Positions 4,601 through 20,118 of a stretch of DNA of 64,000 bases are shown here, piece by piece. Position 1 is the first letter of the stretch. Every line of letters starts with the position of its first letter. The position numbers and the translations under genes were made by a program. Under the pieces are notes generated by a model. That model was given only the letters and a program-made list of their open reading frames with translations, ran no database searches and had not been told where the DNA came from. Source of the DNA: a virus; the IMG/VR virus record IMGVR_UViG_3300008116_003012, positions 55,007 to 119,006 of that record; one strand, 5' to 3'.

Positions 4601-7600
4601 GTTGTTGGTACAAATTACTCCGTAGCCTAAATCGTTAACCTGTGTATAGTCGTTAGCCAACATACTTCTGTTTCCAGGAGTTTCGATAATTATATCAATT
4701 CCTTTTATATCAAAAGTAATAGAACCTGTTGTTGTATGAGCTTTGTCTAGTGTAATAAAATCTTCTGTAACAGAAACAATTTTTGCTCCGGCTGCAAGAA
4801 CACCTGTTCCGCTAACTTTAGTTAATCGCATTCCTTTAACTAGCCCAAGCGTACTGTCCATAGGAATGGTAAATTGACCAACAGTAATGTTTGCATTAGA
4901 TGTTAAATTAGTTGCATCTGGAGTTATTTCAGAACCTAAATAATCTATAAATGGAGTTGAATCATCTAAGATTACTTCAGCAGTAGCAGTGCCAGGATCG
5001 TAAGTAGATACGTTAATCTGATATCTTTCTCCATTTATGTAAAATGCATTAGGAACTTGAATCTCTCTAACATTAAGTCCGCCTATAGTTAGATTGTATT
5101 GATCAGTAGTTGACAATACTTTGGCAGGAAGATTTCCACTGAATCCGTCAATAAACATTCCTCCCCTAAAGCTTTGTTCGTTAACGCTTCCGCTCAAGCT
5201 GGTTGCAGTTTGGCAGTATGGAGATTTAGTTTGAATTTGACCTTCTGGATCAAGAACCATCATAAAGCCGCCGTGACCTTGGCAAGTAATGTTACGCAGG
5301 ATAGTTCCGTCGTTCATTAAGAACACATCCATGTCTTTATTTTCTTTAGGAGGATTGTTAACTCCTATAATAATGTTCTGTATACCTGCAATTAAATCTG
5401 CTACAATAGCTGCAACTGTAGGGCTAGCAGAAAGCAATGGTTGTACCAAAGTATTGATGCGTCCGATGCCTGCAAGAGTTTCTGTTAGTTGAGCTGTTAT
5501 TGCAATTCTAGAACTGGCGTTTCTCTTGTAGGAATAACCTGCTCCTAAAGATCGTTCAATACCTCCATCGGTTATATCGTCAGCTAATGCTTCTACAATA
5601 TAGCCTACATCTCTTGCACACAACACACTGTCATAATCTAAATCTGGATAAGTTGCGTTTATATAAGACACAACTTGATTGGAAATATTTGTTTTAGCAG
5701 CCAATAAGATTCCTGCCTCAACAGTATGGCCGCCAGTTTTTGCAATAGTATCATCGAAAATACCGCTGAGTCCAGTTGGGTCAGATAGATAGTGATATCC
5801 AAATTTGTTGTCTTTTGGAGCTAGACCTGAACTGTTTAAACCTCTTATAGTTGCCCCAACTAATTTAGTTTGCGGAACTTTATCAATTTCAAAACTAGTA
5901 TCATCTCTAAATCTAGTCACTCTGGTTAAATTCTGGAATCGGCCTGTGCCTGACATTACTCTTAAGTACATGCCAACGGTTAACTTGTTTACTGTTCCAG
6001 TAGACAATGTTATTACATTTCCTTTAATTGTGCCAGGGGACGTTTGAGCATCAATCGCTTCACAACTAAAGCTGACAGAACTTGTTGTTCCAGTTATTAC
6101 AGTGTATGTACCGTTGTATGCAGATGGCACTGCACCGCTAACGGTTATAGTAGTACCGTCCGGGAATGGAATACTAGCTTGCGGAGCAAATGACAAAGTT
6201 GCAATGCTACCAGTACCAGTTGCACCTGTACTAACTAATTCGTTTGAAGATGCTGCTGCTGTTTGAGATAAGAATGTTCTTGACAAGCCGTCAAACTCGT
6301 CATCTCTATAGAAGTAGATATTAGCCCATGGACTTAAACTTTGTCCTGCAGCCGGTCTAATAATTACACGTCTAAATTCATCGCCCTTGATAGATACGTT
6401 AGTAGCTATTCTAATTGGCAATTGTTCGTAATACACTCCACTTTCTATTCTAATTGTCACTTGTTGTTCAGGAACAGGCTGACCGTACTCTAATTCTTCG
6501 CCTGGAATAAATTCTAAAGGAGTTCCAGGTTGCGCTGTTCCGTTAGCTACAATGTCGCTTATCGATGCAAAAAATTTAGTTATTAAAGGTAATGTTCCTT
6601 CTTCTGCTTCGTTTCCAGCTGTAGATTGGCTAATAGTTCCCCTCTTTCCAAATGCTCCGGCAGTTGTAGTTGAACTGATTGTATTATTCACTAATATTTG
6701 TTGCATTAACAATTTTATGTAATTAATACCATCTAATGTTTGAGAAAGTTGCTCTGTAGGTAATGCAGAAGCTGCGCCTCTTCTATAAGCTTTTGCAGCT
6801 TTGATAACATTTGAATTTCCGCCGTAAAGCACATCTTTTTTAACTGCTTCTACAATATAGCCTACATCTCTTGCACACTTAACTTGATCGTAATCAACTG
6901 TAGTAAGTTTAGAATCTATGTACAAAACAACTTCGTTTTTTATAAATTCTAAATTACTTTCTAATTTTGAAGCAGCATCTATGTAGCCAGTTTGAAAATA
7001 AACTATATCTTTAGTATCATGTAGTAATTCTACAATATATTGATCGTTAACACCACTGACTCCTACATAGTTTATTACTTTACCTGTAGCTCCGCTTCCT
7101 AATCCTTTAATGATACTGCCTTCTCTTAAATCTCGGTTTTCAACATTTATACTTTGATCAACACCTTGACCGTCAGTAAACACGTTCAATGTTCTAATTG
7201 ATCCAATACCTGAAGTTAAAGAATTAATATAAGCTTTATATGCGTTGCTTCCGTATGTTAGGGGTTGTCTATAAGGACCTGGTTCAGTCTCACTTATTCT
7301 TATCATTTCTTCTGCTTTTTCGCAAGCCTTGCTTAGGCTAGCATAAGCAGAAGAAAATGCTCTTCCTTGTCTTTCTTCTGGAATGTTTAGTTGTTCATCA
7401 CTTCCTGTTGTAGAAACAAAAAGATTGTTAGGACTTACATAGCTTGAACTATCAACATAAAGTTTAGTTGCTGCTTGAAGGTCATCTAAGCCAAAAGGTG
7501 TTCCTACTCCTGAAAAACTTCCTGGGTGATCAAATAAAATTAAATCACCTTCCATGTTATCACCTTGTCGACGAACAGTGCTCTTACGAGGCAAGGATTC

Positions 7601-8800
7601 ATCGCTTATCCAGTTTCCAGAAAGTGTAGGATCGTATGCAGCATCTACAAGTTGTTCATCTCCTCTAAATTGAGAAACTAAACTAAATGTTAGGTCTTGT
7701 CCTGGACTTACGCCGCCTAGACTTGTTCCAAGTATTTTAAGATCATCACCTTGAACATATTCATCATCCCCAAAATCAACAAAAGTAATAATAATATTAT
7801 TTTCAGAGTATATAGGATTGTTATTAGTTTTTTCTACTCGTACTGTTGCTCCAGATCCGATGCCAGTAACAGTTGTTACGTTTAATTCTTCATAGATAAA
7901 CGGAACAGATAGCCCTGTTCCAGAAATACTAGTAGGATCAACATTGTATACAGTTTGACTAATCTCAGGATCAATGTTAACAACTATGCGAGTGTTGTTA
8001 AAATTAACATCATCAATGGCTTGCTCTCTAGAAGGATATACTGCTAATCTATCATCATCGTAATATCGAAGATAGTAAGTGTCTTCGGTGATTAGTCCAG
8101 TTGCCGGAGTGTTTCCTGTATTTACATAAACAAATGCTGCACCGTTAATTGAAGTATTAAATCCATGTCCAGGTATAACGGCATACCCGTCTTGATCCCA
8201 ATTATCAACTGTTAAAGAATATTCAGATACATCTTCAGGTTCAGAACGAACTCTGATGCGTCCACCTATACCTGTAAAACCTCCTGTTTGCACATATCTA
8301 CGATCAGCATATCCTCTAGTTATTACTAGGTCATCTTCACCTATAGATGTATTGTGTAACGTATTGAATAAGTTTCTAGCTTCTGCACTAGGGTTTGCAA
8401 TATTGCCTATAGCAAATTGATTACCATTTAGGTGATTTCCTAAAACTGGTTCGTCGTCATTAACTAATCTTCCGCCGGTTGTAGTAATGACAATTTCATT
8501 TTCGTCAGCATGATTAACCAGTATTCCTTCTCCGCCTACTAATTTCTTAGCAACTAATGCATCGGCAAATTCACTTGAAACAATAACTTTATCAGCATCA
8601 GAACCGAGGTCTCCTCTTGGTACTCCATTAGGGAATCCGTCCGGTGTATCATCCAAATCTCCGAAAGATATCGTATCGCCTGATCCAAATATTGCAAAAA
8701 GTTGTGTAAAATTATCGTTTACTTTTCGAAAAGATTCACGAATACTATCACCAGTTCCGTCGTTACCCTGTGTACCAATGTCGATAGTTTGTCTTGCCAT
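1640..8800 (-). CDS. Very large baseplate/tail-associated structural protein (2386 aa; probably continues by +1 frame change into 547..1665)
   Basis: N-terminus MARQTIDIGTQGNDGTGDSIRESFRKVNDNF (gp9/gp10-type motif); DAATKGYVD/QAATKLYVD fibre motifs; two CARDVGYIVEA repeats; GGAG SD and TAAATA at 8837-8842. Confidence 0.8.
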   Translation of the reverse strand: MARQTIDIGTQGNDGTGDSIRESFRKVNDNFTQLFAIFGSGDTISFGDLDDTPDGFPNGVPRGDLGSDADKVIVSSEFADALVAKKLVGGEGILVNHADENEIVITTTGGRLVNDDEPVLGNHLNGNQFAIGNIANPSAEARNLFNTLHNTSIGEDDLVITRGYADRRYVQTGGFTGIGGRIRVRSEPEDVSEYSLTVDNWDQDGYAVIPGHGFNTSINGAAFVYVNTGNTPATGLITEDTYYLRYYDDDRLAVYPSREQAIDDVNFNNTRIVVNIDPEISQTVYNVDPTSISGTGLSVPFIYEELNVTTVTGIGSGATVRVEKTNNNPIYSENNIIITFVDFGDDEYVQGDDLKILGTSLGGVSPGQDLTFSLVSQFRGDEQLVDAAYDPTLSGNWISDESLPRKSTVRRQGDNMEGDLILFDHPGSFSGVGTPFGLDDLQAATKLYVDSSSYVSPNNLFVSTTGSDEQLNIPEERQGRAFSSAYASLSKACEKAEEMIRISETEPGPYRQPLTYGSNAYKAYINSLTSGIGSIRTLNVFTDGQGVDQSINVENRDLREGSIIKGLGSGATGKVINYVGVSGVNDQYIVELLHDTKDIVYFQTGYIDAASKLESNLEFIKNEVVLYIDSKLTTVDYDQVKCARDVGYIVEAVKKDVLYGGNSNVIKAAKAYRRGAASALPTEQLSQTLDGINYIKLLMQQILVNNTISSTTTAGAFGKRGTISQSTAGNEAEEGTLPLITKFFASISDIVANGTAQPGTPLEFIPGEELEYGQPVPEQQVTIRIESGVYYEQLPIRIATNVSIKGDEFRRVIIRPAAGQSLSPWANIYFYRDDEFDGLSRTFLSQTAAASSNELVSTGATGTGSIATLSFAPQASIPFPDGTTITVSGAVPSAYNGTYTVITGTTSSVSFSCEAIDAQTSPGTIKGNVITLSTGTVNKLTVGMYLRVMSGTGRFQNLTRVTRFRDDTSFEIDKVPQTKLVGATIRGLNSSGLAPKDNKFGYHYLSDPTGLSGIFDDTIAKTGGHTVEAGILLAAKTNISNQVVSYINATYPDLDYDSVLCARDVGYIVEALADDITDGGIERSLGAGYSYKRNASSRIAITAQLTETLAGIGRINTLVQPLLSASPTVAAIVADLIAGIQNIIIGVNNPPKENKDMDVFLMNDGTILRNITCQGHGGFMMVLDPEGQIQTKSPYCQTATSLSGSVNEQSFRGGMFIDGFSGNLPAKVLSTTDQYNLTIGGLNVREIQVPNAFYINGERYQINVSTYDPGTATAEVILDDSTPFIDYLGSEITPDATNLTSNANITVGQFTIPMDSTLGLVKGMRLTKVSGTGVLAAGAKIVSVTEDFITLDKAHTTTGSITFDIKGIDIIIETPGNRSMLANDYTQVNDLGYGVICTNNGIAELVSVFTYYNWTSYYALNGSQIRSVAGNSSYGKYGMRAAGRDPNEVPDPVALANDTQQVAKIYRRGSFAAKNVAGEISIYVDNYSFAPQNVSEIEIDTSNTRSGAVVNTPTNPNNVTIVSGGLGYSKEEFIDVVGGTLYPNGKTTRIRVIEIDNDPVKLAPTGPSDGIITRFEIIEVGDYSINPVGGYPTVKGTVTTLSDGGTGTGATFDITYLGDIVRYEVSNVELTTSVGEGVDTGGVLGTRPVLKLNLNADAVTGGISAPLTDGQLVIIRSLQNFKFTGINVIRPTRPSTALEFTDPAEEGTVYRTLAYTRNSPIEGNLLIQKAISTVSRASNTATVTVSEPHGLNPGDSIDEVRCTTDDTFNDVSITIISVPTPNSFTYNNPGDNVLAATPGTGTVSYGDTAILTFDTSYNYAILQSNELKLNDVDYVDGGLKTMGSKVGDTRIAIKTIQSDFTKGRLNSGNLILAHAGKTFRITGYTDESGAESAYVDLEDIAYGSGSVVTGTGLYQSLPTVQSTVLRAGVKAESPAEITVNISTCRATGHDFLDIGTGGYNSSNYPNNVFGSPASPPEPTQEVREETQGRVFYVSTDQDGIFRVGRFFSVDQGTGTVTFAASIALSNLDGIGFKRGTTVKEFSTDVTMTDNAEDTVPTESAVRGYIDRRLGITHNGGVVTDSQRIPAGSGFLDLQGTLPMGGDLNMGGGDPPTPHRIINLALPSSDTDAATKGYVDNLVEQSDTFAELKDVAVISTNKGQLPVFTGAGPAIISSTVGGVLSATVDTTVTALLVGGITVLPVIDSGIIGTTQSSVSGGIVVDDVTGFPNNGFLRIGNEIFSYGAITTVANRFDNVTRAKFETAGAVHSTGATVESLNNSYIDFQIANNSIVNDDISATAGIVQSKLSMQLSATAGAAPTGTAAQKQALSGLASFDSANFEVTDGWVGIKNAGVSLAEIQNINANSFVGNLGTGAAAPAQIASRCQSII
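5588..6878. repeat. 34-bp exact direct repeat (5588-5621 and 6845-6878) encoding CARDVGYIVEA
   Basis: tgcttctacaatatagcctacatctcttgcacac is present at both positions. Confidence 0.9.
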
Positions 8801-9164: not shown

Positions 9165-10045
9165 ATAATCTATTTGTTTATGGAGATAGTTTTGCTTCTC
9201 CGTCTGCTATCACAAAAGAAACATGGGTTAATATTTTAGCTGATAGTCTTAATTATCAAGTAGTCAACAATGCTGTTTTAGGAAGTAGCACAGAGTATTC
9301 TTTTTTTAAATTTGTAAAAGATGCTCAAAATGATATTTTTAAAGAAGAAGATATAATTATTTTTGTAATAAGCAGTCCAGGGCGCTTATATTTTAACTAT
9401 CAATTATTTGATGATCCGTCAACTGGATCTAGATTTTTAGGTCCTATAAGAAAGACAGATCTTTCAAATTTATGGTATAAAGAAAATAAAGATAATATTA
9501 AATGGTATGTAAGAAATACAAATCAAGAATTAAATCAAATTAATCATGAATCTTATATTGAAGTTTTAAAGTCTTTTGCTAGAAAAAATCCTAAACTAAC
9601 GTTTTTTGTAATGCATAATCCTGAACCTTTAAATCTTTTTAAACTAGATCAATGCCCTCCTAATTTTTTCATGCCGGATATTTGTTTAGTTGAAATATCA
9701 AATAGAGAAATTATCGATCAAACTAACTGTGATTTTTCCAGCTGGACTAGATATACAGATATAGATTGTAGATTAAATCATTTAACTAATCCAAATCATA
9801 AAATTTTAGCTAATTCTATAAAAAATACTATAACCAAAAAAACTATAGATTTTTGGAATTATGATTTATTTCATCAAGGAATAATTAAACAAATTACAGA
9901 TTTAGCAGAATACAAACATTTTGTTGATAAACAGATTTTATTTCAATTTCCGAGAATTGAAAAAAAATTATCTAAAAAAGTTTCAATATTTAGACAGTGT
10001 ATAAATAAAATCACGAAAGGGGAACATTATGTTCACATTTATTAA
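9161..10045 (+). CDS. SGNH/GDSL-like hypothetical protein
   Basis: N-terminal VYGDSF and C-terminal NHL motifs; ATGA overlap with the upstream gene; AT-rich. Confidence 0.55.
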   Translation: MNNLFVYGDSFASPSAITKETWVNILADSLNYQVVNNAVLGSSTEYSFFKFVKDAQNDIFKEEDIIIFVISSPGRLYFNYQLFDDPSTGSRFLGPIRKTDLSNLWYKENKDNIKWYVRNTNQELNQINHESYIEVLKSFARKNPKLTFFVMHNPEPLNLFKLDQCPPNFFMPDICLVEISNREIIDQTNCDFSSWTRYTDIDCRLNHLTNPNHKILANSIKNTITKKTIDFWNYDLFHQGIIKQITDLAEYKHFVDKQILFQFPRIEKKLSKKVSIFRQCINKITKGEHYVHIY

Positions 10046-10340
10046 AAAATTATTTGGTTTCGATCAAGAAACTATTAAGGCAGCTGGAGTACAAATTGAA
10101 CAGGCACCTTACAAAGTACCTGAGCCAGTAGCTCCGACTCCAATCCCACTAGTACCAGAGGCAGTACCAATGGTAGCAGTAGAAAAGCCAGCACCTGTTG
10201 TTGAAGCTGCTCCCGCAAAGCCAGCTCGTAAACCACGTGCTCCAAAAGCGCCTGTCGCAGAAAAAGCAGCCCCTGTTAAGAAGGCTGCTGCAATTAAGGC
10301 TGCTCCAAAAGCTAAAACACCTCGTTCAAAGAAGGTTTAA
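10029..10340 (+). CDS. Ala/Lys/Pro-rich basic protein (histone H1-like tail)
   Basis: C-terminal PAKPARKPRAPKAP...KKAAAIKAAPKAKTPRSKK; TATAAATA at 10000-10007 and GGGG SD. Confidence 0.65.
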   Translation: MFTFIKKLFGFDQETIKAAGVQIEQAPYKVPEPVAPTPIPLVPEAVPMVAVEKPAPVVEAAPAKPARKPRAPKAPVAEKAAPVKKAAAIKAAPKAKTPRSKKV

Positions 10341-11351
10341 TTGTTTAGCCTGCTGATGTAGGCTAAAACTGGCAATATTTTTGCCTTTGCTTTCACACAT
10401 GATATCATGTGTACCCAAAAAGCTCAGTGCCCATTCGTTCACTGCTGTATTCCAGTAGAAGTTTGAATGTGCTCTGAGCTTTTGTTTTTTGTGCCCAGCT
10501 TCTAGCAATGCTGTATAAGCAGGTAGTGTTTTATCGCAATGTCCTGGCAACCATTCTTCACGACTGACTGAATAATGTACTACAGGACGAACGCCGCGCC
10601 AAGAGTCAATTACACGTAGAACTCTATCGTCGGAGGGTTGAATGTAGTCTCCTGTACGGACCCAGTGATGGTGTATATCAAGCACGAGGGCGCAATGCTT
10701 TTGCAGTTCGAGACTGCTTTCGATTCCCCATGCGTTTTCGTCATTTTCGATGGTAATGCAGTTTCTTGCTTCTGGAGTGAGTCGTGAAAGAGCGTCGATG
10801 ATACCGGCTGGACCTCTTCGACCCGAGATGTGGACATTGATTTTAAAGTCCTGAAACGATTTACCAAATCCCATCCATCGGGCCATATCCACATGATATT
10901 CAAATTCCTCAATAGATCGATTTACAATATCATCTGACTCAGATGCCAACACGCAAAACTGCCCAGGATGCATACTAAGCCGAACACCCATCTTGCGAGC
11001 CAAATCGCCCACGGTTCCAAAGTGCTTTTCTGCATAGGCTCTAACATCGGATAGCCCATAGAAGAACTTCCAGCTAGGCTCAGTGTATACAGGAAGTATA
11101 TCGCTGCTGAGTCGTACCATTCTAAGATTTTCATCAAGTGCTCCTACACGTTCTACCAGCTTGCGAACAGCTTCAATGTTACCTTTCATTAGGTCCCATA
11201 GTTTTTCTTCAGCTACGCTCTGGCTCTGTCTATTTAACCAACTGACAGTAGTACTGCCAGTATTATACTGTTTAGCATCATCTTTGGGTTTAATACCGTT
11301 AACTTGATCAGGAGTGTCAATCCACTTGCAAGCAAAACCAATACGCTTCAT
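10326..11351 (-). CDS. uvsE: UV DNA damage endonuclease
   Basis: RIGFACK, RLSSD, RLSMHPGQF, IENDE, LDIHHH, HYS and RAHS motifs of the UvsE/UVDE TIM-barrel family. Confidence 0.92.
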   Translation of the reverse strand: MKRIGFACKWIDTPDQVNGIKPKDDAKQYNTGSTTVSWLNRQSQSVAEEKLWDLMKGNIEAVRKLVERVGALDENLRMVRLSSDILPVYTEPSWKFFYGLSDVRAYAEKHFGTVGDLARKMGVRLSMHPGQFCVLASESDDIVNRSIEEFEYHVDMARWMGFGKSFQDFKINVHISGRRGPAGIIDALSRLTPEARNCITIENDENAWGIESSLELQKHCALVLDIHHHWVRTGDYIQPSDDRVLRVIDSWRGVRPVVHYSVSREEWLPGHCDKTLPAYTALLEAGHKKQKLRAHSNFYWNTAVNEWALSFLGTHDIMCESKGKNIASFSLHQQAKQLNLL

Positions 11352-11382
11352 AAAAATTAATCAAATAAAAAGGACATAATGT

Positions 11383-11411
11383 ATTATAACATCTATGTCC
11401 TTTTAAGTCAA
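11383..11411 (-). promoter_or_regulatory. sigma70-type promoter TTGACT-17-TATAAT (extended -10) upstream of uvsE, embedded in an inverted repeat
   Basis: -35 at 11411-11406, -10 at 11388-11383, flanked by the AAAAGGACATA...TATGTCCTTTT inverted repeat. Confidence 0.8.
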
Positions 11412-12596
11412 TCAATCTACTAGCCGAACTAGTTTCATTGCAGTAGCAGGACTCAGTGTCCAACCTAGGTGCCCATGTCCTGTATGATAATAGACATCGG
11501 GTGTGTTAGATGCCTGCACTATGGGCATCATGTTTGGAGTCATAGGCCGTAAGCAAGCCCAACTTGAATAGTCACTAGTATTAATTTTTGGAAAGTTTTC
11601 ATGAACCCAATTTAACAAAGGTTCAATTCGATCTCTGCGTATGTCATAATTTTCGCCTGCAAGTTCCGCAGTGCCTGCAACACGGAAACGATTGCCTAAT
11701 GTGCTGGTAACAATCTTAGCTTGATCATCTAGTAGACTAACTTTAGGCACATGCCGCATGTCTTCTTCTTGAATATTGATAGTGATACTATATCCCTTGA
11801 CTGGGTATATAGGCAAACTATCTCCGAACATACTAGCAATCTTTACGGATCCAACACCTGCGGAAACTACTACAGTGTCAAACTGATCGAATAAGTCTTG
11901 AGAAAAACTGCTGTTTATTTCTAAGTCAAAAATAAACTCTACACCATATTTCTTTTCTAATACGTTTGACAGTTCAATGCAGAATTTGTGTATGTCTCCA
12001 GTCCAATCGCTAGGAGTCCATGCACCGCCTATTACATCTTCTAAGTCTCCAAGTGCGGGATCTAAACTAGTAGCTTGTAATGGACTTAGCATATTCCATT
12101 CGCAACCGTAGGCATTATACAGTTCTTTTACATCGTGAGCATTCTGTAGGTACTGCGGATCTTTATAGAAGTGCAATATGCCGCAGTAACTTTGATCAAA
12201 CGCAAGACCTTCTTCCTCTATAATTTGTTTGTAGAGTTTTCTAGATTCGATACCTAATCTAATAGTTTCAGCAGTGTTTCTGGCATAGTCACCTTTAACA
12301 GTATTCCAGAGAAAACTAGTCATCCATTTGATCTTGCTAATGCTAGGGGTAGGACGAATCAGTAACGGAGCATCTTTTTGAAACATCCATTTCATACCTT
12401 TCCAAACATTGCTCCAAGTAGTCCATGTTTCACTGTTGCTGACAGAAACTTGTCCACCGTTGGCAAAGCTAGTACGCATAGCAGGATGACGCTCTTGTTC
12501 AAGTACAGTGACCTTGTGACCTGCCCGTGCTAGATAATAGGCTGCTAATATGCCTGTAATGCCTGCACCAATTACTGCTATTGATCTATTAGTCAT
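11412..12596 (-). CDS. dadA: D-amino acid dehydrogenase / FAD-dependent oxidoreductase
   Basis: GAGITG Rossmann motif, TSFANGGQ, PVKGYSIT, WACLRPMTP and TGHGHLGWT, all typical of DadA. Confidence 0.85.
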   Translation of the reverse strand: MTNRSIAVIGAGITGILAAYYLARAGHKVTVLEQERHPAMRTSFANGGQVSVSNSETWTTWSNVWKGMKWMFQKDAPLLIRPTPSISKIKWMTSFLWNTVKGDYARNTAETIRLGIESRKLYKQIIEEEGLAFDQSYCGILHFYKDPQYLQNAHDVKELYNAYGCEWNMLSPLQATSLDPALGDLEDVIGGAWTPSDWTGDIHKFCIELSNVLEKKYGVEFIFDLEINSSFSQDLFDQFDTVVVSAGVGSVKIASMFGDSLPIYPVKGYSITINIQEEDMRHVPKVSLLDDQAKIVTSTLGNRFRVAGTAELAGENYDIRRDRIEPLLNWVHENFPKINTSDYSSWACLRPMTPNMMPIVQASNTPDVYYHTGHGHLGWTLSPATAMKLVRLVD

Positions 12597-13247
12597 TTAA
12601 TACTTTCCGCTAGCCAATACAATTTTACAAATATGCTCTAGTCGTTCGATATGTTCATAGGCACGCCATGGTGAGGTATCAATTGCTACAACACCGTGTC
12701 CTTTAATACCTACAATATCATAGGCAATGTTGCCGTCTCGATCTAATTGTAATTGTTTGTGACATTGGTCCGCAAGCTCTTGACTTATAGGAGGTACATC
12801 TCCTACGTTAGGTGCTACCCGAGTATATCGATTGAGTTCTGGAAATGCGGCACTTACCGTACTCAAATCAATGCCGGCATGCATAGCCGCAATACAGTAA
12901 GTAGGATGCACATGTACTACTACACGGACTTCCCCTGTATGCTGTCCCATTTCTTTTTGTAAACCAAAATGTAATGGTAGCTCTCCACTGGGCTTTAGGT
13001 TGGCGCTGATCTCAGTGTAGGGCAATTCTTTAACTGCATGATACAGGCGAGGAGGTTGATCCCAGTATCCTTTCTCGATGCCAATCTTTTTAAATTGATC
13101 AGGTTGCAGTGTTTGTTTACGCACACCACTAGGTGTAATGTAAAAGTGATCCCTGTCGTGATGGCGAATACTTACATTACCATCACGACTTGTGATCCAG
13201 TTACGCTTATAAGCGTCAACCATTATATCGCAAATTGTTTCTAACAT
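12597..13247 (-). CDS. Class II aldolase/adducin family protein
   Basis: GNVSIR, ITPSG, PSGELPLH, VHVHP and HGVV zinc-binding motifs. Confidence 0.85.
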   Translation of the reverse strand: MLETICDIMVDAYKRNWITSRDGNVSIRHHDRDHFYITPSGVRKQTLQPDQFKKIGIEKGYWDQPPRLYHAVKELPYTEISANLKPSGELPLHFGLQKEMGQHTGEVRVVVHVHPTYCIAAMHAGIDLSTVSAAFPELNRYTRVAPNVGDVPPISQELADQCHKQLQLDRDGNIAYDIVGIKGHGVVAIDTSPWRAYEHIERLEHICKIVLASGKY

Positions 13248-13579
13248 TAATGATTTCTCTTCCCGTCAAATACGCAAACAAAGTAAAGATTATTAGATTT
13301 TGATTTGTTATGAACACGATGAAATGCACCGTCTGGAATTAATACAACGTCACCTTCTAAAACATTAAATCGCTTGTCGTCTATTTCTATCTCTCCTATA
13401 CCCAATACAAAATAATAAACTTCTTCTTGTCCCGGATGACTATGACCTCTAGTGCTTTGTCCTGCCTTTAAGTCAGTAGAACTTAGCACTAGATTGTTTA
13501 AAGTTTTATTATCTTTGAGCACATAGGTTTCGTTGTCTTTGACAATTTCCCCTCCTACATTGTATATGCTCAATTTCAT
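13247..13579 (-). CDS. Cupin domain protein
   Basis: GHSHPGQEEVYYF and GDVVLIPDGAFHRVHN cupin motifs; start moved to the ATG at 13579. Confidence 0.8.
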   Translation of the reverse strand: MKLSIYNVGGEIVKDNETYVLKDNKTLNNLVLSSTDLKAGQSTRGHSHPGQEEVYYFVLGIGEIEIDDKRFNVLEGDVVLIPDGAFHRVHNKSKSNNLYFVCVFDGKRNH

Positions 13580-13580
13580 A

Positions 13581-14108
13581 TTAGCCCTCGTAGATTGCCG
13601 AATTACCTGCGTGTTCAAACACTTCCGCTGACTTTAATCTAACACCCGCACCTACTGGATAGCGAGCTTCAAACACACGACCGTCAGGGTGTGTCCAACC
13701 GCGACCTTCTTGATATGCAGTTAGAATTTCGTTCATAGTCTTGTATACTAATTCAGCAAACATTTCGCAGCCTACACCATCTACAATGCGTAGATCAATG
13801 ATACCCATGTTTTTAAATCCGCCTTGGATTTTGTTTAGTTCTACAAATGTGCCACGTTCCGGATCGTCTTTGCCAATTACCAATGTATGGTCAAATTGCC
13901 ATTCACTCCATTCTTTAAATGCTTTTAATCCACCGAAGTCCATAACCCAATTACGATCATCTAGTGTTTCAGATTCAAAGATTAATTTGATACCAATTGA
14001 GTATCCGTGTAGCATAGAGCAATGACTATGTGTGCTTTTCCACTGTCTAAAACAGCATGAGAGTCCTCTATCGTTACCGTATGTTTTTGTTGAAAGATAT
14101 TTTGCCAT
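13581..14108 (-). CDS. queD: 6-carboxy-5,6,7,8-tetrahydropterin synthase (PTPS family)
   Basis: HCSMLHGYS, WVMDFGGLK, FDHT, GCE and EVFEH motifs; AGGAG SD. Confidence 0.85.
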   Translation of the reverse strand: MAKYLSTKTYGNDRGLSCCFRQWKSTHSHCSMLHGYSIGIKLIFESETLDDRNWVMDFGGLKAFKEWSEWQFDHTLVIGKDDPERGTFVELNKIQGGFKNMGIIDLRIVDGVGCEMFAELVYKTMNEILTAYQEGRGWTHPDGRVFEARYPVGAGVRLKSAEVFEHAGNSAIYEG

Positions 14109-14198
14109 CTCTAGTCTCCTTATGTATGAGCAAGTTTGACGACATGCAGAGTTTATAAAGCGGGATGAATGACGTTAAAGACCGCTATGATACTTATC
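14109..14198 (-). ncRNA. Candidate structured 5' leader (possible riboswitch) of queD
   Basis: GC-richer intergenic segment with an AGCGG/CCGCT stem (14186-14182 with 14163-14159) and possible loop pairing with downstream ATGTCGTC just ahead of the SD. Confidence 0.35.
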
Positions 14199-15374
14199 TC
14201 AAGCTACCTTGAGCAAGATAATTTCTTCGTTAATGCGTCCGTTCATCTTAGTGTCAGTTGCATTAATTTCGTCTAGAAACTTTCGCAGTGCAATTTTGCC
14301 AGCCGCTTTAAACTCTTTCAGTTTCTCTTCTGGCTTGCGAAGTGTCTTGCAAATGCTCTTAGTCTCATCAAAGCCTGTAATGGTAGTACCTTTGATGCCT
14401 AGTGTGTTAAACTCTGAGGCCACATACTTGCCCAACTTACGGCTCTTGGTGTTGTAAATCCAAAGTTCGCCTGCGCCAATAATGTCAACAGGATTAACAC
14501 TAACAAGTTTCAAAGGTTCGTTAGTCTTCATGAACTTGAGTTTAGCAACCAACTTGTCCTTAGGCACTGCCTTGGTCTTACGAGGCGCACGATTGACTTT
14601 GGCTTCTTGCATCAACATTGTGCAGGCAGTTTGAATCTCAGTTAAGAAGATAATAAAATTCTTAATCTGTTTGCGGCTACGATGCTTGTATGCTTCTTTA
14701 AGTTGCTCGTCTGCCGAACCACTGGCCAGTTCTTCAAGTTCTGCCAAATCTCGAGCGTAGAAGTCACGAATGATACGTGCGTGAGCAGCCTTTGCGCCTT
14801 TGCCTTTCAGCAAGTTCAGCATCTTAAATGCTTTAGGATCAAAGTTTTCTGGATCATTCTGAAAGTTTTGATACGCTTCTTCAATCTCTTCTGTCATCAA
14901 CATGGCAGCATCACGTACTCGTTCTTGAATAGTGACAACAGGACCTGTAGGCTTTGCTTCTACAACAACACCGCTTTCGTCAATGTCGTCTTTGCCTTCG
15001 TCGATAATTTTAGCAATCTCAGAACCTAACCAAGTGGCAGTGTCGCGACCTTTGTTAAAGTCAGGACGATTACTTTGCATACCACGAAGCAGACAAGCGG
15101 CAACTGCACCGACTGTCATGCCGCAACGATTATCTTTTGTTTTCTTAAAACTTTGAACAGTCTTTTTGTCGTAACCGTTCTTGTTCATCCACTCGATGAC
15201 TTTAACTTTGAGTTCTTTACCGCTAGACTCCATTCGGTAGTATTGCATAGCACCGTGAAAATAACGAAGAAACTTAGTTTCATCCCAAGTTTCGCAACCT
15301 GTCCAATCTGGACTATAGTCACGTTTAGCTTTTTCGCGGATTGCAATAGATGCTTTTTTAAGTTTAGTTGCCAT
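14199..15374 (-). CDS. Hypothetical early phage protein
   Basis: 391-aa Lys-rich ORF with AGGAG SD and a consensus sigma70 promoter upstream. Confidence 0.7.
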   Translation of the reverse strand: MATKLKKASIAIREKAKRDYSPDWTGCETWDETKFLRYFHGAMQYYRMESSGKELKVKVIEWMNKNGYDKKTVQSFKKTKDNRCGMTVGAVAACLLRGMQSNRPDFNKGRDTATWLGSEIAKIIDEGKDDIDESGVVVEAKPTGPVVTIQERVRDAAMLMTEEIEEAYQNFQNDPENFDPKAFKMLNLLKGKGAKAAHARIIRDFYARDLAELEELASGSADEQLKEAYKHRSRKQIKNFIIFLTEIQTACTMLMQEAKVNRAPRKTKAVPKDKLVAKLKFMKTNEPLKLVSVNPVDIIGAGELWIYNTKSRKLGKYVASEFNTLGIKGTTITGFDETKSICKTLRKPEEKLKEFKAAGKIALRKFLDEINATDTKMNGRINEEIILLKVA

Positions 15375-15403
15375 TAGGCGCTCCTGTGTTAAACAATACT
15401 TAT

Positions 15404-15432
15404 ATTATAACATCAAAATAGTGCTGTGTCAA
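15404..15432 (-). promoter_or_regulatory. Consensus sigma70 promoter TTGACA-17-TATAAT
   Basis: -35 at 15432-15427, -10 at 15409-15404, TG extension. Confidence 0.85.
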
Positions 15433-16274
15433 GTCCAAAGACTGCCACGAATTTTAACCAAACGGCATAACATTTCGGTATCTTCTTGCTCGTATGCTTG
15501 CTCAATTTCATGAGTTTTGGCTAGAGCAGTGTCGCCCAAAGCACGTAATTCTGGATTCTTGCTTTCTTTCATAAAACTCAATCCAGTGTCGCCGTGTTCT
15601 TGACGCTTGCGTTCGCAGTACTCTGACCAGCCGCTGGCATCGTGCGGATCTGGACGATTTGGATAAACTTCCGTCCACCATTTGTACAAAGCCAAAATTT
15701 CCAAAGCTCGTTCAGCTTGCGGAGTAGGTTGTCCAATATGCGGGTCTCCAGTTTCAAAACCTTCGTCTTCTCCCCAGCGAAGTTTGCTTTGCCAATCTAA
15801 GTTATCTAGACCTGCCTGCGGACAACGCCAAGTTCTCCAACGCCACCAACCAGTAGCCCAGAATGGAGCATTGTATTTTGCCTTTTCTTCTTTGTCAGCC
15901 CAAGCAATGTGCCACCAGGCTAGTTCAACTTCGACGAATTCAACAAGTTCGTTGAATAGGCAAGGGAGGAACCGGTTGCCCACGTCGCACCAGTTACCGG
16001 GCTTGATGTCACGAGGGTGAGCGGTAAGACTATGAGTGCGAGTAACCCAACGGTTATTAATATAGTACTTAATAGCATGTAATGTATCCGTAGGCCAGTA
16101 TACGACCTTTTGTAAGTAATCGAGTCCTTCTTCTGCTAACCAGTAACGAAAGCTGTGTTTCATTTGGGCCGCAGTAGTCCATTCATCCCAACCTTCAGCA
16201 GTCTTGGCTCCGCCCTTAGCGGTACCTCGAAGCCAGTCAGCGAACTTTGAGTTGGTCCAATAGTGGTTACGCAT
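15429..16274 (-). CDS. Hypothetical Trp-rich phage protein
   Basis: 281-aa ORF, translationally coupled to the upstream gene. Confidence 0.7.
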   Translation of the reverse strand: MRNHYWTNSKFADWLRGTAKGGAKTAEGWDEWTTAAQMKHSFRYWLAEEGLDYLQKVVYWPTDTLHAIKYYINNRWVTRTHSLTAHPRDIKPGNWCDVGNRFLPCLFNELVEFVEVELAWWHIAWADKEEKAKYNAPFWATGWWRWRTWRCPQAGLDNLDWQSKLRWGEDEGFETGDPHIGQPTPQAERALEILALYKWWTEVYPNRPDPHDASGWSEYCERKRQEHGDTGLSFMKESKNPELRALGDTALAKTHEIEQAYEQEDTEMLCRLVKIRGSLWT

Positions 16275-16717
16275 TATAGTTTCTCGTATGTTTGTTTAAA
16301 AATATCTAACTTAACTACACCGTAGTCGTTTTCACCGTGACGAACAATAACATCTTCGTCTGGATTATAGTGTAACTTCTCACCCCATGATGTGTCAACA
16401 CTTCCAGAGTGATCTGCTAGTTTAGCCACTTTGATAATCTTCTTTGGTGTGCAAACACTGTTGCCTAAATCATCTTTAAGATCGTTAAACTTCTCTGGAC
16501 TGATAGGATACTGTTCACCTTTAGGTCCAGTCATGATATAGAATCCTTTTGGATACTTAACTGGACCTTCAAGAGTGTCAATGGTGCCAGGCTCGTTGGC
16601 AATCTCATAACGCTCTTTGGCAGGACGTTTGTAAGTTTTAAATCCACCGTCCTTGAACCATTCGTCGTTAATGCCCTTGCCCATTCCTTCTACAATATTG
16701 ATAAACTCTCGAATCAT
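16274..16717 (-). CDS. PGDYG-like domain protein
   Basis: TLEGPVKYPKGFYIMTGPKGEQYPISPEKF plus a second degenerate copy (TSWGEKL...GENDYGVVKLDIFKQTYE); start moved to ATG 16717. Confidence 0.6.
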   Translation of the reverse strand: MIREFINIVEGMGKGINDEWFKDGGFKTYKRPAKERYEIANEPGTIDTLEGPVKYPKGFYIMTGPKGEQYPISPEKFNDLKDDLGNSVCTPKKIIKVAKLADHSGSVDTSWGEKLHYNPDEDVIVRHGENDYGVVKLDIFKQTYEKL

Positions 16718-16718
16718 T

Positions 16719-17390
16719 TTATTTTCTTTCGCCAAACAGTTGTAACAAGTTTAAAAACAAGTTAATGAAGTTAAGGTATAGTGTCAATGCACCTGCAACT
16801 TCGCCATTGCCAATTTGATCATAACTGAGCATTTCTCGAATACGCTGTGTGTCGTAAGCAGTAAGACCAAGGAAGATGATAATAGCCAATGCTGAGATTA
16901 CCATTTGAAATACAGTACTACCGATAAAGATGTTAATAATGCTAGCAATGATAATTGCAATCAATCCAACAAACAATAAACTGCCTAGTTCAGATAGATC
17001 CTTTTTAGTAAAGTATCCATAAAAACTCATAACTCCAAATAATACTGCGGCACCCATAAAGGCTGTAACAATACTGCCCATATTGTAAACTACAAAGATT
17101 GTAGCAAAACTTAGACCCATTAGTGCGGCAAATCCGTATAGCAAGAAGTATGCTACAGATTTACTCACTTTCTCCAAAGCAAAACTAATACCAAACACTA
17201 ATACTAGAGGTGCAAAAATTACTAACCATTTCATTGCACCAGTAAAGAAAAATGTCATCAGTGCCGCATTGGTTCCTACAAAATGACTGACTAGCATAGA
17301 AACAATAACTGCTAATCCCATATTTTTATAAACGCCAGCCATTGCTGTATTAATAGCACTAGCGTCTCGATAATTTGCTGTTGTGTACAT
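16719..17390 (-). CDS. Bax inhibitor-1/YccA family membrane protein
   Basis: About 7 hydrophobic helices; TKKDLS, LTAYDTQRI and GALTLYLNFINLF signature. Confidence 0.9.
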   Translation of the reverse strand: MYTTANYRDASAINTAMAGVYKNMGLAVIVSMLVSHFVGTNAALMTFFFTGAMKWLVIFAPLVLVFGISFALEKVSKSVAYFLLYGFAALMGLSFATIFVVYNMGSIVTAFMGAAVLFGVMSFYGYFTKKDLSELGSLLFVGLIAIIIASIINIFIGSTVFQMVISALAIIIFLGLTAYDTQRIREMLSYDQIGNGEVAGALTLYLNFINLFLNLLQLFGERK

Positions 17391-17400
17391 AAAGTTCTCC

Positions 17401-17583
17401 TTATCCTTTATTTAATACGATTTTAAATCGTTGTTCAAAAGCTGGTGCAAGGCAGCTATAAGTTTGTTGAGTAAACGTATTAGTATAAAAGACCCAAGTC
17501 CTTCCGTCTAACTCTCTTACATCATCTACATAAAACTCTGTACGGTTATCCCCTGTCCATACTTGGTGTCTTTCTATTTTCAT
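17401..17583 (-). CDS. Hypothetical protein (60 aa)
   Basis: ATG 17583 overlaps the upstream stop (ATGA). Confidence 0.55.
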   Translation of the reverse strand: MKIERHQVWTGDNRTEFYVDDVRELDGRTWVFYTNTFTQQTYSCLAPAFEQRFKIVLNKG

Positions 17584-17804
17584 CTTAATGCGTCCATTGT
17601 TAATTCTTTGCCGTAAACATGTGCTACAGGTTTGAGCCATCCTCGATCAATACAGGTAGCAATAATCTGTCGATATTCTCGTGGGCAGTGTTCATTAATT
17701 TCAAATCCTGCCCTAGGGCATATCACTAAACCGTCGTTGAGCATAAACTTACTATCACCTTGTCTCACTGTTCGTATTTTTGATACTTGTTGAATAAATT
17801 TCAT
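17580..17804 (-). CDS. Hypothetical protein
   Basis: 74-aa ORF with ATGA overlaps on both sides. Confidence 0.65.
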   Translation of the reverse strand: MKFIQQVSKIRTVRQGDSKFMLNDGLVICPRAGFEINEHCPREYRQIIATCIDRGWLKPVAHVYGKELTMDALR

Positions 17805-18019
17805 CGTAGTGCCTCAAGTGTTTGTTGTTTGGCTTCTTCTTTAACTTCTTGATTATGAATAGTTTGAAGTCCTCGGAACATGTCTTCAATTACATGTATG
17901 ATAGCATCTTTGCCTTCTTCAGTCAAATGACTATACTCCGGACTGACAGAACTTTCGTGCCAAACACTTTTGTTCCGACTGAGTTCTAACAAGGCACCAT
18001 AAACAATGTCCTTGTTCAT
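17801..18019 (-). CDS. Hypothetical protein (72 aa)
   Basis: Start MNKDIVYG at 18019, just after the ligase stop. The longer ORF call overlaps the ligase and is rejected. Confidence 0.6.
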   Translation of the reverse strand: MNKDIVYGALLELSRNKSVWHESSVSPEYSHLTEEGKDAIIHVIEDMFRGLQTIHNQEVKEEAKQQTLEALR

Positions 18020-18032
18020 ACTTCGTCGCAGA

Positions 18033-19346
18033 TTAAATTTTTTCGCCATGATCAAAGCCTCGGAAACGGAGGAACCGCGGAAAGCGTAGAGAATAAGTAC
18101 CATCTTGGTTTTGCGTGATAGCGTCTGCACGGACTTCCACAATGTCGCCCACAATCTTATCACGGGCGGCCCAAAAAGCAATACGCTGATCATCAGTAAA
18201 CCCAGAACCAACATTGACCAAAATCCTACGTCCGTCATCTTCGCCTTCACAAACTAACGCACCTAAGCGTCCAATATTTTTACCAGTACCTTCTTCAACT
18301 GCGGTTACAGTTAGACTCACTTCAATAAATGGCTTTAACTTGAGCCATGCCACTGAACGTTTGCACTTGTAACCTGCGTTGGCGTCTTTCAACATAATGC
18401 CTTCATAGCCGCCAGCAATGGCCAGAGCGTTAATTTCTTTATAACGCTTTTGTCCGGCAGCAGTGTCTAAGTCTACAGTTTCTTGCGCCACAACTGTTAC
18501 ATTGGGCAGTACAGATTCATTAGCTGTAAACCAAGTCTTGAGCCATTCACTCCGTGCTTCTTGTGTAGTAGCACTTTCGCCAGTTTCAAACTCAGCCAAC
18601 GGCAATGCATCAAACAAGTTAAGAACAGCATCGTTAGCCTTTGCACTACTCTTGCGGTGAATCTGCTTCATCAAATCTTGAAATGTCCCGCTCATGATCT
18701 CACCGTCAAGCACCATAGGCTCAGTAAAGCCCTTGGCAATTTTTGCCAACTGTTCTTTGACATGAGGAAAGTTTACCAGCTCTTTGCCATTGCGACTAAA
18801 CTGATCAACACGACCATCCGGGTAGACAATTGTAATAACTCGTACACCGTCCAGTTTAACTTCAATGATCTTTTTACCTACGACTTTGCTTTCATGATTG
18901 GCACTGTCGTGTGCAAGCTGACAACTAAACACAGGAACGCTATAGTGGACATAATCTTTTTCCGTTACACGATTGATTGTTGCTTCGCTGAATCCTGCTC
19001 GCATGTCTTTAATAAGAATGCGTCGGTACCATCCATTCCATTGTGCCTTAGTGGCTGTCTTCATCAAGTTAGCAACAGTGTCACGGGCAAGGTTGCCGGT
19101 GAGTGAGCGATTAACAAAGCCAGTAACAATGAGGCTAAAACTATCCCAATCCAAACCAGGCCCATCTTCATCTTTTTTCTCCGGGATCTGTTTCAATCCA
19201 AAGGTGATCATAGAGTCCAATGCCAATCGACACCCGTCGAAAAACTCTGTGTTGCCTGCCACTGCTTCTTTTAGCACTTCGGCTTCTTTAGCCAAACGAC
19301 TGTTATCTGCTTCAATGGCTGCGATTACTTCCCAAGGTTTACGCAT
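18033..19346 (-). CDS. ATP-dependent DNA ligase
   Basis: Motif I EVKLDGVR, LDGEI, EGIMLK, WLKLKP, OB-fold VGSGF and SLRFPRF. Confidence 0.95.
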   Translation of the reverse strand: MRKPWEVIAAIEADNSRLAKEAEVLKEAVAGNTEFFDGCRLALDSMITFGLKQIPEKKDEDGPGLDWDSFSLIVTGFVNRSLTGNLARDTVANLMKTATKAQWNGWYRRILIKDMRAGFSEATINRVTEKDYVHYSVPVFSCQLAHDSANHESKVVGKKIIEVKLDGVRVITIVYPDGRVDQFSRNGKELVNFPHVKEQLAKIAKGFTEPMVLDGEIMSGTFQDLMKQIHRKSSAKANDAVLNLFDALPLAEFETGESATTQEARSEWLKTWFTANESVLPNVTVVAQETVDLDTAAGQKRYKEINALAIAGGYEGIMLKDANAGYKCKRSVAWLKLKPFIEVSLTVTAVEEGTGKNIGRLGALVCEGEDDGRRILVNVGSGFTDDQRIAFWAARDKIVGDIVEVRADAITQNQDGTYSLRFPRFLRFRGFDHGEKI

Positions 19347-19375
19347 TTAAACTCCTAATCTTTTACAATGCTTGT

Positions 19376-19404
19376 ATTGTAACATCAAAAGTTTAGTAAG
19401 TCAA
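19376..19404 (-). promoter_or_regulatory. sigma70-type promoter TTGACT-17-TACAAT upstream of the ligase
   Basis: -35 at 19404-19399, -10 at 19381-19376; shares TTTTGATGTTA with the 15404 promoter. Confidence 0.75.
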
Positions 19405-20118
19405 GTGTTTGTCTGTTTTAAATGGCTTACCTATTTGGGCATACGGTAAATTCCTGATGATTTTCTTTTTGAGAGAACGGATTACAGGGTGTGTATGATC
19501 CCAATCAAATGCTTTGAGTATCTTATGATATGTTGTCTTTTTGCTACGTTTTGCTCGATTACTGTCCAAATATTGTTTGGCAGAATCAAAGTCGTCGCCA
19601 AAACGATTATACAGTTCACAGGCAATGTTAAAGCTAAATGCGCCCATTTCGTCTGGATGTCCGTAATACTCTTGTTCTTTACGGTCACGGGCATAGTAGG
19701 CAGTGCTTTCGTAGCCTGGTATTGCTTTGAACTGTCTTGTGCGATATTGTCTTAGGTGTATTATTTCGTGTAACATTGTGTCTGCAAACAACATACACAT
19801 TCTTTGCCAGCGAGTCTCAGACACTTTGATCTCGCCATCGGTATCCTTGTAACTAAACACTATTTCTATTTGACGCTTGCCTTCAACATCGTAGTCTGCA
19901 TAGTAAGTTCCGCCGATGTAAACTAATCCTGCTTCGTGTGTAGGATCGTGATCCATACGAACTTTAATGGGCAAATACTGTTTAATATGGCTGCTTAGGA
20001 GTTTTTGTAGATCTTTGACAGAAAATCTCTTGCCTACTATAGAAGGTTTAAGCCCGTACAACATAGTGTACAGGCTTTTTCTGTCCAATAATGACCAGTT
20101 AAACGGTTTTCTTGACAC
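19393..20118 (-). CDS. Hypothetical HExxH zincin-like protein
   Basis: LHEIIHLRQ and EYYGHPDEMGAF; GTG start with AGGAG SD; TAAATA at 20138-20143. Confidence 0.6.
   Translation of the reverse strand: MSRKPFNWSLLDRKSLYTMLYGLKPSIVGKRFSVKDLQKLLSSHIKQYLPIKVRMDHDPTHEAGLVYIGGTYYADYDVEGKRQIEIVFSYKDTDGEIKVSETRWQRMCMLFADTMLHEIIHLRQYRTRQFKAIPGYESTAYYARDRKEQEYYGHPDEMGAFSFNIACELYNRFGDDFDSAKQYLDSNRAKRSKKTTYHKILKAFDWDHTHPVIRSLKKKIIRNLPYAQIGKPFKTDKHLTY

Follow-up and report, generated by a model that had tools for sequence, protein, structure and literature searches.

A conserved pseudoknot leader before queD-like genes of uncultured phages, a candidate translational ON riboswitch

To our knowledge, new classes of riboswitches are seldom discovered, and nearly every validated class has been defined in bacteria. 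Cultured phages use the 7-deazaguanine/pterin route for the modification of their DNA. One pseudoknot known from a phage leader is that of the T4 gene 32 mRNA, an autoregulatory H-type pseudoknot that serves as the nucleation site of gp32, while the adenine (add) riboswitch represents a translational ON switch, in which the ligand-stabilised aptamer competes with a helix masking the ribosome-binding region. The closest described systems are the preQ1-I riboswitches, which are H-type pseudoknots with the 3' strand of the first stem (P1) always following UC or AC, the C of which pairs with the ligand (PMC11625349). The same source describes a conserved G-C pair on top of P1, an A-rich linker (L3) in the minor groove of P1, and a second stem (P2) that buries Shine-Dalgarno (SD) nucleotides and turns the gene OFF, and it lists all known preQ1 riboswitches as OFF switches (PMC11625349). 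Here, we describe a phage leader of related architecture, for which the opposite switching direction is predicted.

The leader was analyzed within a window of 64,000 nt, i.e., the whole stretch of DNA studied, from a 119-kb source record for which IMG/VR gives a CheckV completeness of 33%. The source virus is a freshwater jumbo phage with related contigs of up to 357 kb, and searches for DNA similarity to named phages gave no match. A gap of 90 nt (14109..14198) separates a 391-aa ORF (14199..15374, minus strand) from the queD-like ORF (13581..14108, minus strand). An earlier note on this DNA had described the gap as an unusually long and GC-richer spacer in a tightly packed operon. The leader sequence quoted there is exact (minus strand, 14186..14109, followed by the ATG at 14108..14106), and the length of the spacer is indeed mildly unusual, with 90 nt vs. 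60 nt or less for the other gaps in the gene block at 10-21 kb. The spacer is not richer in GC (0.40 vs. 0.405 and 0.423 in the flanking genes), and the operon description needs to be qualified because a promoter-like element lies just 5' of the stem and the leader probably begins its own transcript. The features of the locus, in the order of transcription, are as follows:

14199..15374, minus strand: upstream ORF of 391 aa, assigned to phrog_11903 and without a Pfam family
14191..14197, minus strand: -10-like element ATAAGTA, ending 4 nt before P1
14182..14186, minus strand: 5' strand of P1, AGCGG, 99.8-100% paired in the alignments
14176..14181, minus strand: L1, UCUUUA, with C and U at positions 2-3 (near-)invariant and the remainder variable in length in the alignments
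14166..14175, minus strand: 5' strand of P2, consisting of ACGUCAU, a mismatched U (14168) and CA (14167..14166), from covariation and duplexfold
14164..14165, minus strand: L2 junction UC, with an invariant and unpaired C14164 immediately before the 3' strand of P1
14159..14163, minus strand: 3' strand of P1, CCGCU, from covariation
14149..14158, minus strand: L3, a linker rich in A, UUAUAAACUC, in which three A are invariant and occupy alternate positions
14139..14148, minus strand: 3' strand of P2, consisting of UG (14148..14147), a mismatched C (14146) and AUGUCGU (14145..14139), from covariation and duplexfold
14138..14144, minus strand: anti-start strand UGUCGUC, overlapping the P2 3' strand and complementary to GAUGGCA
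14116..14121, minus strand: Shine-Dalgarno sequence AAGGAG, read from the sequence, 7 nt before the ATG
14103..14109, minus strand: start region GAUGGCA (ATG at 14108..14106), target of the anti-start strand
13581..14108, minus strand: queD-like gene of 175 aa with the motif SHCSMLHGY (PF01242, 49.8 bits; phrog_2389, 'QueD-like')

The remainder of the window yielded several observations in their own right. The genes 3' of queD (11412-13618, minus strand) include a cupin gene, a gene for a class II aldolase/MtnB-like protein and one for a flavoprotein that resembles D-amino-acid dehydrogenases (466 bits vs. a cut-off of 494). These genes occur only in some related loci, which makes the interval from queD to uvdE a variable 'moron' zone. 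A low-GC island at 25500-57000 (0.30-0.35 vs. 0.40-0.44 around it) contains a cluster of radical SAM enzymes that is unusually dense for a phage (six of the ten ORFs sampled), including one with a B12-binding domain (36227-38122, minus strand) and one with a SPASM domain (46946-48214, minus strand), as well as a TauD-family dioxygenase (42343-43398, plus strand). An ORF of 695 aa (57446-59533, minus strand) has an Mtd_N domain (major tropism determinant, 53.9 bits) at its N-terminus and might be targeted by a diversity-generating retroelement. An ORF of 2386 aa (1640-8800, minus strand) matched no Pfam family at E≤1e-5.

Folding of the single leader sequence gave a minimum free energy of -17.2 kcal/mol vs. 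-18.2 +/- 3.2 kcal/mol for shuffled sequences (z = +0.32), which is no better than chance, and the case for a structure therefore rests on comparison. We used two alignments, one of 42 distinct leaders produced by MAFFT with no structural input (A1), and one of 98 distinct rows aligned to a covariance model (A4). This model, R1, is based on 88 sequences and was given P1 as its sole pair set, and A4 leans towards P1, not towards P2. The earlier note had proposed that AGCGG (14186..14182) pairs with CCGCU (14163..14159) and that the loop enclosed by this stem possibly forms a pseudoknot with the sequence close to the SD. The stem proved to be conserved, and the loop sequence ACGUCAU (14175..14169) pairs with AUGUCGU (14145..14139) at 6/7 positions, interrupted by a central U·U. 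P1 was paired in 100% of the cases in A1, with two pairs changed on both sides, and P2 in 82.8%, with two-sided changes at 5/7 pairs. A1 reached a covariation score of 0.253, compared to 0.102 +/- 0.013 for shuffled alignments (0/500 shuffles reach it), and slid partners were only 33-52% paired. The larger alignment A4 showed P1 paired in 99.8%, with 3/5 pairs changed on both sides (A-U/U-A, G-C/C-G and C-G/A-U/U-A), including variants with ACCGG and CCGGU, while the 9-pair version of P2 was paired in 76.9%, with 7/9 pairs changed on both sides. Altogether, 10/14 pairs of A4 were changed on both sides and 85.4% were paired, compared to 28-46% in slid controls, and the covariation score amounted to 0.227 vs. 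0.091 +/- 0.007 (again 0/500 shuffles). Because the L001-type rows and some of type E are out of the P2 register in A4, these figures are conservative. Covariation among homologs, suggested earlier as a check, is thus present in the stem as well as in the pseudoknot.

The comparison also extended P2 beyond the helix described before. The block UCAUC, located 5' of the P1 3' strand, pairs with the block UCUGC after the A-rich linker, so that P2 continues past a conserved mismatch, U·C, into the step CA/UG, which covaries. The first pair of this step reads C-G in 90 rows but U-A in one (L062), and the second A-U in 87 rows but G-C in four (L228, L259, L262 and L274). The extended helix was recovered unaided by RNAduplex/duplexfold, and it shrinks the L2 junction to two nucleotides, N-C. 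About 14 unpaired positions are (near-)invariant across the alignments, among them the C that precedes the 3' strand of P1, while the base 5' of this C is U, C or A (U14165 in the window). This makes C14164 a candidate ligand-pairing base, by analogy to preQ1-I. In type-E leaders, an alternative distal register of P2 (GGCAU with AUGCU) was considered and rejected, as it showed no covariation; the proximal register covaries with the variants GGCA/UGCC, GGCU/AGCC, GGCG/CGCC and GGACA/UGUCU. We regard the existence of a structured RNA as close to certain.

The promoter-like sequences just upstream of the stem raise the alternative that the conserved block acts at the DNA level as a promoter, operator or cruciform, or else as a terminator of the upstream gene, rather than as an RNA structure. 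Perfect TATAAT boxes are present upstream of P1 in 27/90 distinct loci, 25 of these 27 ending 6-9 nt before P1, often together with TTGAC-N17 and a TG extension, and 34/90 distinct upstream regions contain ATAAATA or ATAAGTA ending 3-12 nt before P1, which may be a T4-late-like promoter element. These -10-like elements just 5' of P1 place the RNA element where the mRNA is predicted to begin, behind two classes of promoters. The TATAAT-like hairpin loop of type-E leaders would also fit an element acting as DNA. It is, however, largely refuted by the G·U pairs of P2, which occur in 21 and 12 rows at two positions of A4 and fit an RNA of the sense strand only, and by the fact that the covariation preserves pairing rather than sequence. 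Nor is the A-rich/UCUGC block repeated as a promoter motif beyond chance, since TA.AAA.T[CT]TGC was found twice in the source genome (G000) vs. about once in shuffled sequences, and this candidate was dismissed. As for a terminator, a scan of 10000..20000 for intrinsic terminators gave no site in 14109..14198, and P1 is followed by UUAUAAAC instead of a U-run. We therefore rate an explanation at the DNA level as very improbable.

Evidence for transcription in the environment was sought in four metatranscriptome runs, in which 5-8% of the sampled words were present. Metatranscriptome contigs of relatives cover the leader together with the 5' part of queD; some extend upstream of P1, and DNA carry-over is possible, so they were not taken as evidence of expression or of a transcript start. 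As a separate observation, the SD-sequestering hairpin of type-E leaders (e.g., L050, 2968-2995) has the loop sequence TGCTATAAT or a variant with TAAAAT, TACAAT or TATTAT; this corresponds to an extended -10-like box within the leader, which might act as an internal promoter or as a site of sigma-dependent pausing.

To assess how widely the element occurs, we collected loci by two protein searches and one search blind to genes, which share some contigs and are not independent. Querying IMG/VR with the QueD-like protein yielded 452 relatives, and the motif was present in 75/80 loci of the best 80 (clade 1); a further one (L026) contains its 3' half, cut by the end of the contig. A regular expression accounted for 74/80 of these loci; L053 and the 3' half-motif of L026 were contributed by R1. 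R1 found no motif in the four other clade-1 loci (L037, L068, L073 and L075; 4/80), so the element appears to be dispensable in some lineages. A second clade was reached via locus L164, and the best 80 of its 596 relatives contained the motif in 79/80 cases (66 by regular expression, 12 more by R1, and L282 also by R1), the only locus without a call being L270, which has no upstream DNA. The conservation among homologs, which had been left to be checked, thus extends over two clades of QueD. The gene-blind scan of IMG/VR with an IUPAC pattern returned at least 120 stretches, and the 80 loci examined included 73 with a complementary P1; a QueD-like ORF starts 24-215 nt downstream of the motif in all of these (73/73). 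Five of the seven other loci carry the motif with a mismatched outermost P1 pair.

The tie between the leader and queD held throughout, as the element was found before queD-like genes only, and the first ORF after the motif was a gene of the PTPS family in every instance examined. In L053 (2576-3525) and L256 (1054-2000), the motif is followed by a canonical PTPS of 141 aa (CSHLHGH; 95 bits in L256) and then by the phage-type QueD-like gene (HGY), and the jobs of these two paralogues may differ. Because the genes after queD vary between loci, the element belongs to queD alone. A pattern scan of bacterial genomes (at least 120 stretches, 80 loci examined) gave a complementary P1 in 13/80 loci, and the one that looked real was L164. 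This contig of 5.5 kb is listed as part of a Bacteroidetes MAG, which says nothing firm about a presence in bacteria or about the host. So far, the element is known only from uncultured phage contigs, many of them from giant phages.

The number of copies per genome bears on another explanation, namely that a phage or host protein, either QueD itself or a phage translational regulator, binds the pseudoknot and sets the translation of queD. The earlier note had named such a protein-bound operator next to a metabolite-sensing RNA. The covariation and the conserved unpaired bases would fit a protein site equally well, and the large myovirus-like genome with its putative T4-late-like promoter elements is a setting that suits this explanation. 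R1 detected exactly one strong copy per genome in five phage genomes (54-70 bits), which argues against the operator of a multi-gene regulon; autoregulation is unaffected by this argument. Weak second matches of R1 in three of these genomes (G001-G003; 14-20 bits, at most 19.8) cover only the L3/UCUGC part, lack P1 and were not accepted as copies. In addition, the invariant junction C and the A-rich L3 mirror pseudoknot aptamers for small molecules (PMC11625349), and no RNA-binding domain was seen in QueD. Binding of a protein instead of a small ligand thus appears unlikely to us.

A further explanation is that the leader might simply be a divergent preQ1-I riboswitch with canonical binding of preQ1 or preQ0 that escapes the Rfam model. 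Both share the H-type pseudoknot, an invariant C after U, C or A, a G-C pair atop P1 and an A-rich L3 (PMC11625349), and the gene family downstream is controlled by preQ1 riboswitches in bacteria. The whole 64-kb window gave no match to Rfam 15 at the gathering score, the models for preQ1-I, -II and -III and THF included, and at E≤10, no family exceeded the chance level in the stretches 14095..14200 of the window and 2905..3015 of L001, where only snoTBR7, IS009, CRISPR-DR33 and ROSE_3 appeared with 9.9-12.6 bits. A direct search with the preQ1-I model RF00522 in five genomes (G000-G004) found nothing at the five queD leaders, the best match elsewhere reaching 13.2 bits vs. a gathering score of 39; the corresponding control search passes the cut-off in 1/14 control genomes. 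Besides this missing match, the absence of SD nucleotides from P2, an L1 of the form NCU(+) rather than UU, the longer L3 and P2 and the ON wiring all speak against a canonical member of the family, and we consider this explanation rather doubtful. The statement in the earlier note that the leader does not follow the preQ1 and THF consensuses is borne out, as no Rfam family matches it. We also found no paper on this motif in the main texts of the openly accessible literature.

The region between the aptamer-like fold and the start codon follows at least three designs, each with a sequestering helix that reuses nucleotides of the 3' strand of P2. The first design, to which the window belongs, pairs UGUC(A/G)UC with GAUGGCA at the start codon, the second pairs GCCAUUGUU with AACAAUGGC, and the third pairs CCUAUG with the CAUAGG of the Shine-Dalgarno sequence in a hairpin, the loop of which resembles a -10 box. 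A conserved aptamer-like fold combined with varied expression platforms upstream of one gene class is a trait expected of riboswitches. The 7-bp anti-start helix of the first design is the minimum free energy structure in several leaders, and 91.4% of its cells are paired in 42 leaders vs. 31-63% in slid controls. Its changes are one-sided only, without a single two-sided pair (a value matched by all 500 shuffles), as its target is coding sequence that does not vary; the ON wiring is thus supported by complementarity and energy models, not by covariation. The SD is located ~20-30 nt after P2, which contains no SD nucleotides itself. Because the 3' strand of P2 also serves as anti-start or anti-SD strand, formation of the pseudoknot is predicted to switch translation ON. 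When both strands of P2 were blocked in a partition-function model of 91 leaders, the mean unpaired probability of the AUG rose from 0.15 to 0.35 and that of the SD from 0.38 to 0.57, values obtained with an automatic choice of P2 that is wrong for some type-E leaders. The mean duplex energies of P2 (-6.5 kcal/mol) and the anti-RBS helix (-8.9 kcal/mol) are close, so a ligand could tip the balance. Control of translation via the competing anti-start helix is probable from these results, and the direction predicted by the models is that the pseudoknot turns translation ON.

The leader might also act without any ligand, if a pseudoknot formed during transcription kept the start open, protected the 5' end of the mRNA, or acted as a thermometer or kinetic timer. 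P2 comprises 5-10 bp, compared to a P2 of 4 bp in preQ1-I, and the element is located at the predicted 5' end of the transcript, where structures can stabilise an mRNA. The ~14 invariant unpaired nucleotides, however, exceed the needs of a fold that merely stabilises, and the placement of the anti-start strand inside P2 in three platform designs implies switching between two states. A ligand-independent leader is accordingly an improbable explanation in our view.

The queD-like protein matches the NCBIfam QueD model TIGR03367 with 36.2 bits (cut-off, 89.25) and contains the motif CSMLHGY instead of CxxxHGH. Its nearest counterparts in cultured phages show 44-47% identity, share SHCSxLHGY and are encoded within QueE-QueC-QueD-FolE(-TGT) clusters; in two cultured phages, the QueD-like protein encoded in the QueE-QueC-QueD-FolE cluster likewise has the HGY motif. 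A GTP cyclohydrolase I (FolE) is encoded in the same phage record, and a radical SAM protein of 287 aa (G000:C1:8653-9516; L296, 784-1647, minus strand), located ~2 kb from folE, weakly matches five QueE models with E values of 1e-10 to 1e-14, falling short of their cut-offs. A homologous radical SAM match is located ~4 kb after the queD leader in the related genome G002. QueC (PF06508) was not detected in G000, G001 (100% complete) or G002 (97%), and three other genomes gave weak partial matches. TGT/DpdA (PF01702) was not detected in G000 or its relatives G001-G005, and the TGT-like protein of phage HD01 gave no match in a search of the relatives that was run without a positive control. Since neither QueC nor TGT/DpdA was detected in two near-complete relatives, 7-deazaguanines and pterins both stay candidate ligands.

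Based on these data, we propose that the 90-nt spacer provides the promoter and the 5' leader of the queD-like gene, and that the first ~50 nt of the transcript fold into an H-type pseudoknot with a 5-bp P1 and a P2 formed by the P1 loop and the sequence after the linker. The pseudoknot and the start-sequestering helix are mutually exclusive. A small ligand with a guanine-like face may stack between P1 and P2 and pair with the invariant C, thereby locking the pseudoknot, which would free the start codon and allow QueD to be made. Our best guess for this ligand is an intermediate from the FolE-QueD-QueE route, either a 7-deazaguanine or a pterin (e.g., preQ0, CDG, CPH4 or H2NTP), and the assignment to one of these two families is tentative. 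We assign a probability of roughly 55% to the leader being a riboswitch-type translational ON switch, a reading in which the binding of a ligand, its identity and the direction of switching are inferences. Several points weigh against this reading: all known preQ1 riboswitches switch OFF (PMC11625349), and ON control of a biosynthetic enzyme by its own product would be unusual; a P2 of 5-10 bp might form in the ligand-free state; the anti-start helix shows no two-sided covariation; the single sequence folds no better than shuffled ones (z = +0.32); QueC and TGT/DpdA were not detected in two near-complete relatives; and 4/80 loci of clade 1 lack the element. The broader proposal in the earlier note of a new structured cis-regulatory leader of queD, distinct from the known preQ1 and THF riboswitches, is supported by the conservation, the covariation, the exclusive link to queD-like genes and the negative Rfam results.

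If a metabolite is bound, phages would carry their own metabolite sensors for timing the enzymes of DNA modification, and the leader would represent an ON-type relative of the well-studied preQ1 pseudoknots as well as a compact (~50 nt) new aptamer for structural and synthetic biology. A more far-reaching version, which we put forward as possible although the odds are somewhat against it, is a riboswitch class confined to phages, with a preQ1-I-like pocket and inverted logic, which senses a 7-deazaguanine or pterin intermediate or a guanine-like signal of the host and turns QueD ON. In this case, it would exert feed-forward control of a pathway for DNA-base hypermodification during infection, and would be the first virus-only riboswitch class and the first ON switch in the queuosine/deazaguanine field.

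Compared to known systems, the phage element shares with preQ1-II (RF01054), preQ1-III (RF02680), THF-I and THF-II the position in leaders of queuosine or folate genes and, with some of them, the presence of a pseudoknot; their models are unmatched here, and their sizes and architectures differ from those of the phage element. With the leader of T4 gene 32, it has in common an H-type pseudoknot at the 5' end of an mRNA of a large phage, but the gp32 site is bound by a protein. The predicted ON logic resembles that of the add riboswitch, which differs in having a three-way junction instead of an H-type pseudoknot, another ligand and another class of genes. The core of the phage element spans ~50 nt, compared to ~34 nt in preQ1-I. 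Like preQ1-I (RF00522), it is an H-type pseudoknot in which the P1 loop pairs with the 3' tail, located in the leader of a gene of the queuosine/7-deazaguanine pathway. Further likenesses to preQ1-I are a 5-bp P1 topped by an invariant G-C pair, the invariant C immediately 5' of the 3' strand of P1 (preceded by U, C or A in the phage element) and an A-rich L3, here with three invariant A (PMC11625349). The phage element may thus work like a preQ1-I-type pocket, but it fails the family model, and we do not file it as a member. In contrast to preQ1-I, its L1 contains an invariant CU rather than UU, L3 and P2 are longer, P2 comprises 5-10 bp with the conserved U·C mismatch and the CA/UG step, and it contains no SD nucleotides; the models predict a switch to ON where preQ1-I switches to OFF.
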